Part shown: positions 1-57,909 of the stretch, in pieces
Layout: every line of letters begins with the position of its first letter
Position numbering within the stretch: the first letter of the stretch is position 1
Sequence record: PZ386947.1
Origin: a phage
Direction: 5' to 3' (one strand)
Length of the DNA: 64,000 nt
Position numbers and translations under genes: made by a program
The notes under the pieces: generated by a model
Databases searched by the model: none
Seen by the model: only the letters and a program-made list of their open reading frames with translations
Told to the model about the DNA's origin: nothing

Positions 1-64
1 AAATAAGGAAGGCCTGATTGCCAGCTTAAACATACTCCATCAATATCAGTTAAAATAGTAGGCT

Positions 65-529
65 TCATAGAGAGTCTCTTAATAGGTTTAACACATCAAT
101 AAATTCAGCTTCTGTTAGTATTGTATCATCTTTTGTTAGACCACTAGCCATGCTGTGCTTCAAAACTTTTCCTTTCGAGGCTTGTAATGCATCGCGAAAG
201 CCTCTGTTTTGGATCGCTGCTTCAAAATATGCATTTGTGTATAATTCTTTCCACGCTGGGGAGTATCTTGAAAATGGAACTCCAAGCCAGAAGAGGGTTC
301 CGCGGTCCTGAGCTCTTGCATAAGACCTTCCAGCTTGTTGGGCGGCAAGCCCGGATAACCCAAATATACGACGTTGTTGTTCAACATTTTTCACCTTGCA
401 TCCTTGGAGGAATCCTTCAAGACCTCCAAATTGAATACCATCCATAACGAAAGGCCAATGGGCGAAATTACTTAATGCACATGATGGCCATCTAAAATTG
501 CTTCTAATCTCTAACTCAGACATTTTCAA
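65..529 (-). CDS. NADAR (YbiA-like) domain protein, likely ADP-ribose processing
   Basis: 154 aa; motifs LSNFAHWPF..DG..F and SGLAAQQAGR and C-terminal helix align by eye with E. coli YbiA/NADAR family; position matches the T4 gene 30.x cluster. Confidence 0.6.
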   Translation of the reverse strand: MKMSELEIRSNFRWPSCALSNFAHWPFVMDGIQFGGLEGFLQGCKVKNVEQQRRIFGLSGLAAQQAGRSYARAQDRGTLFWLGVPFSRYSPAWKELYTNAYFEAAIQNRGFRDALQASKGKVLKHSMASGLTKDDTILTEAEFIDVLNLLRDSL

Positions 530-722
530 TGCTTATAATTTCAACATCAGCCCAATGACCATAGTTTGGTAGACGAAATTCAACTGGCCAGTCACTGCCT
601 TTTTCTAATATAATAGACTTAACTTGTGGTTCTTCGTGTTCATCAGTATACGGATTTTTATCTGTTACTTTATATGTGACCTTAATGTACTGAATTCCAA
701 AAATCTTATTAATTATATTCAT
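516..722 (-). CDS. hypothetical early protein (gene 30.x cluster)
   Basis: 68 aa ORF packed head-to-tail with neighbours. Confidence 0.35.
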   Translation of the reverse strand: MNIINKIFGIQYIKVTYKVTDKNPYTDEHEEPQVKSIILEKGSDWPVEFRLPNYGHWADVEIISIENV

Positions 723-916
723 ACTATTTCCTTTAATCCGTAGATAGGAGATAATTCATCGCCCATACGAAGGTCTTCATTCCCATCTACCCAAAAAACA
801 ATATAAGCCTCTTTTATTTGAACACCACTCCATTTAAATGGAGGTAGAACCTTAGAAATTAATCCAGGTATACCAACTCCCTTTAATTCAACAGTTTGAC
901 CTAAAAAGAATTTCAT
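719..916 (-). CDS. hypothetical early protein
   Basis: 65 aa ORF, 4-nt overlap with upstream ORF. Confidence 0.35.
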   Translation of the reverse strand: MKFFLGQTVELKGVGIPGLISKVLPPFKWSGVQIKEAYIVFWVDGNEDLRMGDELSPIYGLKEIV

Positions 917-1203
917 CAGAACCTCATCTGAAAGCCGTGTGATTTAACATTACCGCCGCCAATATCAGAAATATTAATTTCACGCGCAATTGAAGGGTCA
1001 ATGTCAATTTCACGATTAAGTTTAGCGATAGCTAAAGTATCACGCCCATTTACTGTACGGAATTCTAAAGGACAAACCACATCAACGTAATTTTTAATCG
1101 ATTCACTGGTAGGTTGCAAATGAGCAGGAAGGTCTTTAGGCGCCTTAGAAAAAACCACTTCACAAAAATTTTTGCGGGTATCAAAATAAGTAGTCATAAA
1201 CAT
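916..1203 (-). CDS. hypothetical early protein
   Basis: Track ORF 916..1254 trimmed to ATG at 1203 (MFMTTYFDT...) preceded by GAGGA Shine-Dalgarno; GC hairpin 1222-1239 just upstream. Confidence 0.35.
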   Translation of the reverse strand: MFMTTYFDTRKNFCEVVFSKAPKDLPAHLQPTSESIKNYVDVVCPLEFRTVNGRDTLAIAKLNREIDIDPSIAREINISDIGGGNVKSHGFQMRF

Positions 1204-1243
1204 AATATTTTCCTCAGTAAGGGGCCGAAGCCCCTGTTTTATT

Positions 1244-1609
1244 TTAAATATCAAATTCGTTAAGAACTACATCAAAGATTGCTTCAAGATGTTCAGGTTT
1301 AGCTCTGTTACTCAGAATATGACGAATCCAAGTTTTAACCAGAAGCTTACGATTGACGCCATTCCAGCAAGGATGAGTCCCTAAATCACGTTGACGAAAA
1401 TCATCATCTAATGCGATTTTAAAAGAAGAACCTTCTTTCGTGATTGAAACCGTGATGCCATTTTCAAATCGCATATAAACGTAGTTAGGAGTCATATACT
1501 GTTCAATTTCGCATACTGATCCATTTTGATGTTTCCAAAGGCAGATAGTATCAATAGAACCTGCAATACCGTTAGAAACATATTTACGTTCAAAGTTGAT
1601 GTAGTTCAT
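1244..1609 (-). CDS. hypothetical early protein
   Basis: 121 aa ORF in minus-strand operon. Confidence 0.4.
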   Translation of the reverse strand: MNYINFERKYVSNGIAGSIDTICLWKHQNGSVCEIEQYMTPNYVYMRFENGITVSITKEGSSFKIALDDDFRQRDLGTHPCWNGVNRKLLVKTWIRHILSNRAKPEHLEAIFDVVLNEFDI

Positions 1610-1677
1610 TTTTATTCTCCGAGATGTTTAATTGCGGTACAGATATATAATATCATATCCTGTACCAAAGTAAACAA

Positions 1678-2010
1678 TTATTTTACTACTTTCCAATGCT
1701 TCATGTCAAGTTTACCAACTTTTTTCATCTTCTCAATTAAGCGTTCGGCACGTTGGCGAGCTGTAACATAATACCATTCACCTAATTCATTTTGTTCAAT
1801 TTTTCCAACGATTACTGTATTCAATTCATAAATCCAACCAGTAAAGAAATTATGAACTTGGATTGTAAAGGTGAAATCTGTTCCCATACCTTCTGTTGTT
1901 TCTACTTCAATAATATCACCTTCAACTGCCATTAAGAACCACATAGTTTCATCATATTTACCATTGAAGCATTTAGTTTTAACTGTAGCGTTCAGATTAA
2001 TCGTTTTCAT
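1678..2010 (-). CDS. hypothetical early protein
   Basis: 110 aa ORF in minus-strand operon. Confidence 0.4.
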   Translation of the reverse strand: MKTINLNATVKTKCFNGKYDETMWFLMAVEGDIIEVETTEGMGTDFTFTIQVHNFFTGWIYELNTVIVGKIEQNELGEWYYVTARQRAERLIEKMKKVGKLDMKHWKVVK

Positions 2011-2091
2011 TTTATTCTCCTTTGTTTGTGTAAGATAATACTATCACAAAGGAACCGTACTGTAAACAACTTTGTGCAATCTTTGGAAAAT

Positions 2092-2117
2092 AAAAAAAGG
2101 ACTCCCGAAGGAGTCCT
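2092..2117 (-). terminator. intrinsic terminator or RNA-stabilising hairpin
   Basis: Stem AGGACTCC / GGAGTCCT with CGAA loop, U-run on the minus strand; identical hairpin recurs at 54945-54964. Confidence 0.5.
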
Positions 2118-2121
2118 CAAC

Positions 2122-2298
2122 TTATGCTTTCTGCTTACCAAAACGAGAAGCATCATCTCGAAGAACCGCACGTGCTCGACGCATGATCTTCTCAACAGTT
2201 TGATTAATACGAGAGTTCGACCCACGCTTGTAGCCAGCGCGTTTAGAATCACCAACTTTCTTTTCAACTGCTTTCTTTGCTTTAGCTTGTTTTGCCAT
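2122..2298 (-). CDS. small basic protein (gene 30.9-like)
   Basis: Track ORF trimmed to ATG at 2298 (MAKQAKAKKAVEKK...); 58 aa, lysine/arginine rich. Confidence 0.4.
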   Translation of the reverse strand: MAKQAKAKKAVEKKVGDSKRAGYKRGSNSRINQTVEKIMRRARAVLRDDASRFGKQKA

Positions 2299-2417
2299 TA
2301 TAAATTCTCTTTTAAATGAAAATGCAGGACTTATTGGCATTGCCTGCGCAAGCCCTCAAGGGGTACTTAGGTTTTGAATATTTACCGACAGGATAACCAT
2401 AAACCTCGTCAACATAA

Positions 2418-2666
2418 TTACTTCAGTGTTACCACAAAGTGACGAACTGCTTTTCGTGCAGCAGAAGCCAAAGGCTTAGCATATTTAAGCTCATCTTTTT
2501 CCTGGAGCTCAGCGGCTAATGCAGTTTGAGCAGGATTCAGATGTTTGAAATAACGCAGGATTTCAAGAGCTTCGGCTTCAACATCAATAGATGCGCCATA
2601 GTTTTCGTGACCATTATTCCATGCGTTTCGTTGCAGTTCAAGAGCGTGTTGTAATTGTTTAATCAT
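2418..2666 (-). CDS. rIII: rIII lysis-inhibition accessory protein
   Basis: 82 aa, same length as T4 rIII and same position next to gene 31. Confidence 0.6.
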   Translation of the reverse strand: MIKQLQHALELQRNAWNNGHENYGASIDVEAEALEILRYFKHLNPAQTALAAELQEKDELKYAKPLASAARKAVRHFVVTLK

Positions 2667-2813
2667 TTAAAAATTCTCGTTAGAGATTAAAACTCGGTAG
2701 TCACGTTCTTCTGAATTTCATCTTCTTTCGACAGATCTCTCAGTTGTAGACTACCACATAGAATTGTTCGGTTAACTTATTATTCCGACACCCAATTCAT
2801 ATTATTATTTATA

Positions 2814-3149
2814 TCACTTATAAAGACACGGAATAGCTTTATAGTGACAGGTAACGAATTTTTGTTTAATTTCTTTTGGCTGCTTAAGACCCAGAGCTAC
2901 AAAAGGATGCGGAACATTTCGAATTTGACCAACTGGAAGAGAAGTCAAATCACCAACTTCGCAGAAACCTTCAGGAACATCAGGACCGACAGAGTGAACT
3001 ACACACAGTTCAGGAACTTCACCTTGAACACGTTTACCGATAATAAGTCCTGATTCTGTGACTTCTTCATCACCTGCTTGTGCAGGTTCAGAAACTAAAA
3101 TAACATATTCACCGACAGCACGAATTGGTAGCTGTTGTACTTCAGACAT
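2814..3149 (-). CDS. 31: gp31 co-chaperonin (GroES analogue)
   Basis: 111 aa; sequence [24 protein letters not shown]... recognised as T4 gp31; length matches. Confidence 0.85.
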
Positions 3150-3205
3150 TGTTTTTCCTTTTTGTTAACAGATGAATTAATAATAACAAATAATTCTTAA
3201 AGCAT

Positions 3206-3514
3206 TTATTTACCAATAAATTGGAGTAAATGCTCAACTTTCATACCATTAACAGAAATCAATTTGTCAATAGAAAAACCTCGCCATGCACCAAGTTCAA
3301 CATCAAATACTGGAATCATGTCAGTAGATTCTTTCCAAGTAGATTCAGTCAATTTGCCGGTTTGCATGGTTGGCATAAAGTCCGCATCACGAGTACCTTT
3401 CATAATACGAATAGTACCATCAGACTTTTCAAAAACTACGTTTGAAACACCCATGGACAATTTAGTTTTCAAAATTTCACGAATTGCTACTTTCTGCTCA
3501 GTTGTCAGTTTCAT
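3206..3514 (-). CDS. hypothetical protein (31.x)
   Basis: 102 aa ORF between cd cluster and gene 31. Confidence 0.4.
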   Translation of the reverse strand: MKLTTEQKVAIREILKTKLSMGVSNVVFEKSDGTIRIMKGTRDADFMPTMQTGKLTESTWKESTDMIPVFDVELGAWRGFSIDKLISVNGMKVEHLLQFIGK

Positions 3515-40016: not shown

Positions 40017-40027
40017 AATTTTCCTTA

Positions 40028-51552: not shown

Positions 51553-52155
51553 TTATAGATTAAATCCTTCAAAATCAAGAGTATAGATAGTGTATGTTGA
51601 ATACTTTTTATACTCATATCTATCTGCAATTCTAAATACACTTCCAGCTGGTATCATTACTTCTTGTTCATCTGAAACTAATTCCATATTACGATAACGA
51701 TGACTATCCGGAAACTTAAAGTTTGGATTGTATTCTTTACAGCGTAGAGCTTTTATAGCATACTCCTGGAAATTGAATACCATAGGAGCTTTGAATTCAA
51801 AAATAACTTGTGTGTTATACTCTAAACCGGAAGCAAAATGTAGAGCTATATTTTTATCATATGAAGCTGATACGACTTTATCAAATGTAATAATATCAAT
51901 TCCTTGATTTAACACCTGCTTAGTCTCAGCTGGAACACCTCTCCAAAGAGGTTTATCGTTTGGAACCAAACGAGATTTGATTATTTCATTTAACCAAGAA
52001 TGATCGTCTGGTTTATTAGTAATACAATGAATTAAAAGTTCAATTTCAGATAAATTAAACCCTTCAGAAAGTAATTCTTCACGAATAGAAGCACGCACCG
52101 ATGCATCCATTGATTTTATTTTAAAATCTTTTAGTTGCATTACTGAGTATTTCAT
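51553..52155 (-). CDS. modA: ADP-ribosyltransferase ModA
   Basis: 200 aa as in T4 ModA; paralogous to adjacent modB; 4-nt overlap between the pair. Confidence 0.75.
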   Translation of the reverse strand: MKYSVMQLKDFKIKSMDASVRASIREELLSEGFNLSEIELLIHCITNKPDDHSWLNEIIKSRLVPNDKPLWRGVPAETKQVLNQGIDIITFDKVVSASYDKNIALHFASGLEYNTQVIFEFKAPMVFNFQEYAIKALRCKEYNPNFKFPDSHRYRNMELVSDEQEVMIPAGSVFRIADRYEYKKYSTYTIYTLDFEGFNL

Positions 52156-52775
52156 TCAACTACCTCAATATCATAAACTTTAAATGTTCCAAATGAATCG
52201 TGTAATTTTTCTTTTGAAATAGAAGTTATTCTATACTTTCCAATTGGAATCATCCATTCCTGTTCACGCACAATCATCATTAAGTTATCAGTACGCTCTG
52301 AATCTAATCCATCAGTATCTTCATACGTGTACTTAAACTCAGTATTAGGAGAAGAAAGTATAATATCGCTGATATGGTCAGAATAATTAAAAGCTTTATT
52401 AGTTTTTAAGCGAAGTATTATTTTAGTAAAATATTCAGCGTAAGAAAAAGAACATGCTGTGAGCAAACTAGTAGTAAATGAATCTACTCTATTCGTTGAA
52501 AACACTTCTCCAACTTGTAAATCTTTAATAAGTTCTTCTGTTGATTTTGATATACCACGATATAACTGATAAGGTGATTTAGTTAAATGCTTTTTAATGA
52601 TTTTATTCAACTGCCGATGAAGAGCTTCATTCTTTTTGGCTTCCATACATTGCCAAAGAACTGACTGCTCAAAGTCAGTAAATTTTTCACAGACCTTTTT
52701 ATACATATCATATTGAAAATCGACGCTTTCAGCTTTTATAGATAACTGTTCAACATCTGCAAGATTAATAATCAT
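52152..52775 (-). CDS. modB: ADP-ribosyltransferase ModB
   Basis: 207 aa as in T4 ModB; LYRGIS (R-motif region) and FSTNRVD (STS-like). Confidence 0.75.
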   Translation of the reverse strand: MIINLADVEQLSIKAESVDFQYDMYKKVCEKFTDFEQSVLWQCMEAKKNEALHRQLNKIIKKHLTKSPYQLYRGISKSTEELIKDLQVGEVFSTNRVDSFTTSLLTACSFSYAEYFTKIILRLKTNKAFNYSDHISDIILSSPNTEFKYTYEDTDGLDSERTDNLMMIVREQEWMIPIGKYRITSISKEKLHDSFGTFKVYDIEVVE

Positions 52776-57282: not shown

Positions 57283-57909
57283 TTAACCTCTATTCATAAA
57301 AGCATTAAAAATTTGGTCATCAATAGAAACATTTACTTTAGACTGTTTTTCTGATGGTAATTCATATCCACATATTACAATTTTGTGATCAATATCAAAA
57401 TACACAGAAGCAATATGATTAATGATGTTTTCAGTAAAGTCTAAATCAACATCAATATCTTTTTGACCACAGCCCAAAGGATAAATAATGCGAGTAATTC
57501 GATTATCTTTAACAAATATTCCACCGACATACTCTGTACTGCGTTTAAAGTCTACACGCCGACGAAATGAAAAATATTCAGGCTCTTTATGAGCTCGGCT
57601 CATAGGACACAACGAGTAACTAGAATAAGAGATGTCAAATCCTACGCCTTCGATATGAGCCAAAGTGTCATGATTAAACCAATTATAATCGTACGCCAAA
57701 TCCATTAGATTATAATATGTAAAAGGCACCGGATTAACATCATTAGTCACAAGCATGTAATTAGCAACTGCTATAATTTCATTGTTTTTAACGAATACAA
57801 ACCGTGATTGATGCGAATGACCTGGACCCGCGTTTTCACGATTAATGATATAACACTGGGCACCTTTATATTTGTATGTATCTTTGCATTTGTGCATTTG
57901 ATAGAGCAT
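57283..57909 (-). CDS. hypothetical protein at the T4 61.2 position (possible AdfA-like anti-DarT factor)
   Basis: 208 aa ORF between 61.1 and sp; identification is positional only and rests on my recollection that T4 61.2 is AdfA. Confidence 0.35.
   Translation of the reverse strand: MLYQMHKCKDTYKYKGAQCYIINRENAGPGHSHQSRFVFVKNNEIIAVANYMLVTNDVNPVPFTYYNLMDLAYDYNWFNHDTLAHIEGVGFDISYSSYSLCPMSRAHKEPEYFSFRRRVDFKRSTEYVGGIFVKDNRITRIIYPLGCGQKDIDVDLDFTENIINHIASVYFDIDHKIVICGYELPSEKQSKVNVSIDDQIFNAFMNRG

Follow-up and report, generated by a model that had tools for sequence, protein, structure and literature searches.

A reading frame at one end of a 64,000-nucleotide stretch of phage DNA (sequence record PZ386947.1; the window, below) raises the question of whether a gene that carries the label "hypothetical protein" encodes an enzyme of the NADAR group and, if so, whose ADP-ribosylation this enzyme reverses. 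A sequence-only reading of the same DNA had recognized NADAR motifs similar to those of Escherichia coli YbiA and had offered two roles, i.e., counter-defense against DarTG-like systems of the host or regulation of the ADP-ribosylation driven by the phage itself. The two roles are weighed here on the basis of gene structure, orthology, family profiles, a predicted fold, and the published work on the corresponding gene of phage T4.

Locus and gene structure

The window matches the genome of Shigella phage CM8 (Tequatrovirus, NC_054939) in circularly rotated form, with 100% identity in the segments compared. Its first base corresponds to position 127218 of NC_054939, and the last and the first base of that record lie at window positions 40027 and 40028, respectively. 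Somewhere between positions 3200 and 39280, the window is three bases shorter than NC_054939 (CM8 position 166500 falls on 39280, where 39283 is expected), and the flanking segments that were compared are 100% identical. An Rfam scan over all 64 kb found no family at the gathering score; in particular, it gave no indication of a group I intron in this portion of the CM8 genome.

The mechanically called reading frame of 154 codons runs on the minus strand from a TTG at position 529 to the stop at position 65, just as the sequence-only reading had placed it. In RefSeq, the gene starts two codons further in, at the ATG at position 523, in both CM8 and T4, which results in a protein of 152 aa. This start fits the residue numbering in the literature, namely, E36 and K43. 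The coordinates of the gene, its neighbors, and its diagnostic codons are compiled in Table 1. The gene order of CM8 equals that of T4 (31, rIII, 30.9, 30.8, 30.7, 30.6, 30.5, 30.4, 30.3, 30.2), and matches to the surrounding 3.2 kb occur in 952 phage records, of which 475 cover 80% or more of this region.

Table 1. Features of the adfN locus of phage CM8 and of the two mod genes, in window coordinates
Feature	Position	Strand	Description
adfN (T4 gene 30.3 ortholog), CDS	65..523	-	152 aa, starting with ATG; TGA stop codon at 65-67; CM8 RefSeq CDS 127282..127740, note 'gp30.3 protein'
Two extra ORF codons, TTG AAA	524..529	-	5' of the annotated ATG; probably untranslated (ORF list versus CM8 and T4 annotations)
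30.4/30.3 overlap	516..523	-	8 nt; end of gene 30.4 (516..722) over the start of 30.3 (sequence and annotation)
30.3/30.2 overlap, ATGA	65..68	-	4 nt; stop of 30.3 over the start of 30.2 (sequence and annotation); 30.2 extends beyond the left end of the window
Gene 30.2	1..68, continuing left (L001 5229..6068)	-	start in the adfN stop (ATGA); 279-aa product
S18-N19-F20 codons	464..472	-	N-terminal NADAR motif SNF; invariant in 69 members; aligned with YbiA S30-N31-F32
E36 codon, GAA	416..418	-	catalytic glutamate; invariant in 69 members; equivalent to PnNADAR E43 and YbiA E48
K43 codon, AAG	395..397	-	phosphate-binding lysine; in 90% or more of the family members; counterpart of PnNADAR K50 and YbiA K55
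H123 codon, CAC	155..157	-	histidine of the phage (gp30.3) NADAR subfamily; only invariant His among the 69 aligned
Codons of residues 138-152	68..112	-	C-terminal helix (138-151 in the AlphaFold2 model); identical to T4
modA	51553..52155	-	in the window
modB	52152..52775	-	in the window

The overlap of genes 30.4 and 30.3 (ATGTCTGA) suggests co-transcription and possibly coupled translation. The shorter overlap of 30.3 and 30.2 recurs with the same four nucleotides in a relative with a 57%-identical protein (segment L008). Further upstream, a strong terminator-like hairpin (GAGGACTCC-TTCG-GGAGTCCTT) with a T run was observed on the minus strand at 2097..2118, directly after gene 30.9, and matches to sigma-70-like promoters are located downstream of it at 2066..2038 and 1709..1680 (the latter 11/12). 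Given this combination of a hairpin and promoter matches, genes 30.8 to 30.2 may constitute an early transcription unit of their own. Consensus scans for promoters and terminators over positions 1..3400 returned 10 promoter matches, compared with 10.9 expected from shuffled sequence, i.e., no excess, and our statements on transcription units are therefore limited to the gene overlaps.

The T4 annotation also includes 30.3', a 75-aa internal ORF in another frame of 30.3, which is open in CM8 too (160..387, minus strand) and has a Shine-Dalgarno-like AAGGTG upstream. All nine codons that differ from T4 in the 30.3' frame are nonsynonymous and none is synonymous, whereas in the frame of 30.3 the majority of these changes are silent. 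Thus, purifying selection on a 30.3' protein is not apparent.

Orthology to T4 gene 30.3

The CM8 protein and T4 gp30.3 (NP_049816) have the same length and are identical at 149 of 152 residues (98%). The two genes differ in 15 codons, 12 of them synonymously and 3 nonsynonymously. This predominance of synonymous differences, the match to the Pfam family PF08010 described below, and the phage records covering the 3.2-kb region show that the reading frame is a real, conserved gene and not a chance ORF. The three substitutions relative to T4 (Q22H, K107R, and I125M) are all found at non-invariant positions and spare the conserved catalytic site; M125 of CM8 is the consensus residue of the 69-member family alignment.

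With its 152 aa and its C-terminal helix, the CM8 protein is full length, i.e., free of the frameshift truncation of the RB69 type, and residues 126-152 are identical to those of T4. The inactive RB69 allele has lost this helix through a frameshift, and a truncated T4 protein is less active (PMC11825919). High sequence identity and a shared gene neighborhood, with 30.3 between 30.4 and 30.2 and downstream of 31 and rIII, identify the CM8 gene as the ortholog of T4 30.3/adfN, a characterized counter-defense enzyme that is already known.

The DarTG1 resistance of T-even phages has been mapped to gene 30.3, which was renamed adfN for anti-DarT factor NADAR (Johannesman et al., Nat Commun 2025, PMC11825919). 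After deletion of adfN, T4 and T2 no longer form plaques on DarTG1 cells, and expression of adfN rescues RB69 on DarTG1 (PMC11825919). Against DarTG1, the gene is both necessary and sufficient in T-even infections. Purified T4 AdfN strips ADP-ribose from DarT1-modified DNA in vitro, and binding of AdfN to DarT1 was not observed (PMC11825919). The E36A variant rescues RB69 only partially on DarTG1 and was the inactive control in vitro, where the ADP-ribose signal stays on the DNA; the K43A exchange impairs the protein as well (PMC11825919). The specificity of the enzyme is likewise documented, since a phage gp30.3 NADAR hydrolyzes guanine-ADP-ribose and not thymine-ADP-ribose in vitro (Toxins 2024, PMC11125620; identified as that of T4 in PMC12945103). 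AdfN has no effect on the thymine-modifying DarTG2, and T4 without adfN still withstands that system (PMC11825919). Transposon insertions in T4 30.3/adfN were lost on DarTG1 hosts only (HIDEN-SEQ preprint, bioRxiv 10.1101/2025.11.20.689424).

NADAR membership of the CM8 protein

In Pfam, the CM8 protein is filed under PF08010 (Phage_30_3), with 232.4 bits and an E value of 1.7e-69 over profile positions 1-138 of 138, thus exceeding the gathering score of 36 bits. A HMMER match to the Pfam NADAR profile, which had been proposed as a check, did not materialize: direct hmmscan of the CM8 protein gave no match to PF08719 at an E value of ≤1. The NCBIfam scan of the protein returned nothing, and a single-sequence phmmer search of the PDB sequences yielded no NADAR, the sole match being a chance one (E = 0.58). 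The absence of a direct match reflects the splitting of the phage branch into its own Pfam family, Phage_30_3, and not biology.

The connection becomes visible on the level of the family. Homologs were gathered (94 in total), and the 69 full-length ones were aligned (alignment A1). All 69 match PF08010, and 26 of them, scanned singly, also match PF08719 NADAR at an E value of ≤1, with a best value of 1.5e-7. In a search of the PDB with the A1 profile, the top sequence match was E. coli YbiA (2b3w; E = 0.0044), over the region SNF...DG...E...Q.K...GR. A sequence link to NADAR is thus provided by the family members and by the family profile. In BLASTP, the CM8 protein itself aligned with YbiA in the motif region at 33% identity over 57 aa (pairwise E value of 1e-5). 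Both motifs quoted in the sequence-only reading are present and have their counterparts in this alignment: LSNFAHWPFVMDG (residues 17-29) is aligned with FSNFAAWPIKVDG of YbiA and SGLAAQQAGR (residues 57-66) with SPMVAARMGR.

The AlphaFold2 model built on A1 (pLDDT of 93.2, pTM of 0.89) has the YbiA-like alpha+beta fold, with a helical core flanked by small sheets, and its residues 138-151 form the C-terminal helix that had also been claimed from the sequence. The proposed comparison with YbiA came out clearly, as the three top matches of a Foldseek search against the PDB are all NADARs, namely 2b3w (YbiA; probability of 1.00), 8bau (Phytophthora NADAR; 0.99), and 8bat (Geobacter DarG1-type NADAR; 0.94). 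The remaining matches had probabilities of 0.06 or below. Fold and profile results support the classification of the CM8 protein as a NADAR of predicted minimal, core-only architecture, and the identification of the gene product as a YbiA-like NADAR protein holds on all three lines, i.e., family members, family profile, and model. The phage NADAR has been described as a bare core domain (Toxins 2026, PMC12945103), and the assignment of phage gp30.3 to the NADAR superfamily is credited to de Souza and Aravind (PMC11543638, PMC11125620).

Catalytic and subfamily residues

Residue equivalences were derived from the alignment of YbiA to 8bau and the residue list in PMC11543638. The conserved catalytic residues are in place in the family alignment, with E36 as the catalytic glutamate and K43 as the phosphate-binding lysine (Table 1), and the spacing of seven residues between them is equal in the CM8 protein, YbiA, and PnNADAR.

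The NADAR subfamilies are distinguished by one position, which is occupied by His in phage (gp30.3) NADARs, by Glu125 in the YbiA type, and by Asp in the DarG1 type (PMC11543638, PMC11125620, PMC12945103). Judged by this rule, which requires a His in the last strand, H123 would place the CM8 protein in the phage subfamily; the corresponding strand of the model comprises residues 120-122. YbiA (2b3w) and the Phytophthora NADAR (8bau) combine Glu125 with the motif D130-x-x-W133-G, whereas the residue in the phage family is His123, and a D-x-x-W-G motif (D130 and W133 in YbiA and PnNADAR) was not seen after H123 in the CM8 sequence or the family consensus. The CM8 protein continues with SMASGLTKDDTILT, which contains no Trp, and the family consensus reads HSMG......TVLT, compared with EHTENDAYWG in YbiA. 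Hence, the protein lacks both marks of the YbiA subfamily, and the absence of the motif implies that part of the ADP-ribose pocket would have to be built differently.

Probable function of CM8 AdfN and alternative explanations

The best explanation for the locus is that CM8 30.3 encodes a NADAR glycohydrolase that removes DarT1-made guanine-ADP-ribose from phage DNA and thereby counters DarTG1 (probability of roughly 0.93). Given the identity of 98%, the CM8 allele very probably behaves like that of T4. The host toxin DarT1 would attach ADP-ribose to guanines of the phage DNA and block its replication; AdfN would cut the bond between ribose and guanine, which would free the ADP-ribose and restore the template; and this would allow phage growth on DarTG1 hosts. 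The proposal of counter-defense against DarTG-like systems is accordingly narrowed by the data on the T4 protein: it stands for the guanine-modifying DarTG1 and falls for the thymine-modifying DarTG2.

Several observations weigh against this explanation. In vivo, the E36A and K43A variants of T4 AdfN are still partially active, and wild-type AdfN protects neither uninfected cells nor the unrelated phages T5 and Bas25 (PMC11825919); failure of the gp30.3 NADAR as an antitoxin in uninfected cells has also been reported independently of that study (PMC11125620). On the side of the sequence, the missing direct matches to Pfam NADAR and in the PDB phmmer search and the missing counterpart of D-x-x-W-G have to be taken into account.

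It is very unlikely that the enzyme instead regulates or erases ADP-ribosylation performed by the Alt, ModA, and ModB transferases of the phage itself, for example, on host proteins or off-target nucleic acids. Both modA and modB are present in the CM8 genome, and the nearest ADP-ribosyltransferase genes to 30.3 are two alt-like ones in the same orientation, 3-7 kb downstream and beyond the left edge of the window. The sequence-only reading had described the gene as lying alongside modA and modB, which is correct for the genome as a whole but not for the position, as about 51 kb separate the two genes from adfN, and nothing was found in support of the suggested regulator of phage-driven ADP-ribosylation. 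The targets of Alt, ModA, and ModB are protein arginines. In contrast, the reported NADAR activities concern base-linked ADP-ribose and, for the T4 enzyme, guanine (PMC11543638, PMC11125620, PMC12945103). T4-like phages seem to express their NADAR genes early, together with the transferases (Iyer et al. 2022, PMC9503650), but the only reported phenotype of an adfN loss in T4 is DarTG1 dependent, and T4 does not need the gene on plain K-12 (PMC11825919; bioRxiv 10.1101/2025.11.20.689424).

Also very unlikely is a main substrate other than DNA, i.e., RNA or a small molecule, such as soluble ADP-ribose-derived immune signals, RNA-repair by-products, or, as for YbiA, intermediates of the riboflavin pathway. 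In favor of such a substrate, an N-glycosidase activity on riboflavin intermediates has been described for YbiA (PMC11543638), phage NADARs have been proposed to target mostly low-molecular-weight ADP-ribose derivatives (Iyer et al. 2022, PMC9503650), and removal of guanine-ADP-ribose from RNA has been reported as well for all NADAR families, including the phage one (PMC12945103). However, the T4 deletion results specifically in DarTG1 sensitivity, the T4 protein acts on DNA in vitro, and Glu125 and D-x-x-W-G of the YbiA type are absent from the phage family. A second substrate would add to the role of AdfN on DNA and not replace it.

Comparison with related enzymes

The likeness of CM8 AdfN to T4 gp30.3/AdfN extends beyond the 149 shared residues and the length to the genomic position, the gene overlaps, E36, K43, and H123, and the intact C-terminal helix; the difference consists of the three substitutions in CM8. 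DarG1 (BC4488 family; e.g., the Geobacter lovleyi NADAR, 8bat) has an Asp where the phage protein has its His. It also carries an N-terminal extension, consisting of a helix and two sheets, whose positively charged surface or channel has been proposed to bind single-stranded DNA (PMC11543638, PMC12945103), whereas the phage protein of 152 aa consists of the core only and in the model begins at the core fold. Moreover, DarG1 is encoded beside darT1 and is the antitoxin of uninfected cells, whereas the phage protein is encoded by an orphan gene and leaves uninfected cells unprotected from DarT1 (PMC11825919, PMC11125620, PMC12945103); the CM8 gene is flanked by 30.4 and 30.2 instead of a DarT gene. 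By analogy, the CM8 protein would work like DarG1 without belonging to the DarG1 subfamily. YbiA differs in function as well, with a described metabolic role and a reported inability to protect cells from DarT1 (PMC11543638, PMC11125620).

Other orphan, antitoxin-like enzymes encoded by phages resemble CM8 AdfN in this respect. AdfN-Bas32 (T5-like) and AdfN-Bas60 (Vequintavirinae) have been shown to counter DarTG1, but they fall into other branches of the NADARs and do not depend on T-even infection (PMC11825919). AdfM, the macrodomain protein of T4 gene tk.4, is directed against the thymine-modifying DarTG2 and has been proposed to act likewise (bioRxiv 10.1101/2025.11.20.689424).

A possible partner of AdfN and family architectures

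Full function of T4 AdfN is limited to T-even infection; DNA modification has been ruled out as the reason, and another T-even protein has been suggested (PMC11825919). That such a partner is encoded next door, e.g., gp30.2 or another neighbor, appears unlikely. The gp30.2 protein belongs to phrog_420 and matches no Pfam family at an E value of ≤0.01. It begins with MKPTILTDIDGV, in which DxDGV resembles motif I of haloacid dehalogenase (HAD)-type hydrolases, and a 57%-identical gp30.2 ortholog has a weak match to PF00702 that is below the threshold (E = 0.03). The idea of gp30.2 and gp30.3 as a conserved pair was abandoned: the pair is kept in the 57%-identical T4-like relative and absent in four distant contexts of the gp30.3 family.

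Domain fusions were considered as a second lead to a partner and were also discarded. A full-library profile search with the gp30.3 family recovered 1659 representatives at an E value of ≤0.001, of which 463 reached ≤1e-30. The fusions among these 1659 sequences are heterogeneous (BspA-type leucine-rich repeats, GDSL lipase, Lgt, and FtsW-like) and in some cases possibly artifacts of gene calling, and the extra regions of ten long representatives are unrelated or unidentified. Some metagenomic family members (P0175, P0225, P0121, and P0131) look like fusions of a gp30.3 NADAR with BspA-type leucine-rich repeats, a GDSL lipase, or an Lgt-like domain. In P0095 (480 aa), the family profile matches three stretches, two of which are also found by Pfam. 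These fused proteins could be real cellular architectures or merges introduced by gene calling.

Further ADP-ribosylation genes and implications for Tequatroviruses

An ortholog of T4 gene 61.2 (adfA) was located at window position 57283..57909 on the minus strand; its product is identical to that of T4 at 202 of 208 residues and is labeled "hypothetical protein" in RefSeq. T4 61.2 encodes an anti-DarT factor that binds DarT. The CM8 ortholog is located beside sp, 61.4, and dmd, in a region for which a possible role as an anti-toxin-antitoxin island has been suggested (PMC9391042). With adfN and the adfA ortholog, two different anti-DarT genes are thus present in the window. Downstream of the CM8 DNA ligase gene, two Alt-like ADP-ribosyltransferase genes are adjacent to each other (L001 1..3262; CM8 120325..124479); the T4 stretch examined has one alt gene at that place and ends before the region further upstream.

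The enzyme, its activity, and its counter-defense role were published in 2024-2025, and the current analysis therefore adds no new biology. It exemplifies that a very divergent NADAR can be recognized from sequence alone, even though Pfam keeps it as a separate family of unnamed function. The practical value lies in a better annotation of a gene that is a "hypothetical protein" in the RefSeq records of both CM8 and T4. For CM8 and many related Tequatroviruses, the gene should be annotated as adfN, and resistance to DarTG1 can be predicted.
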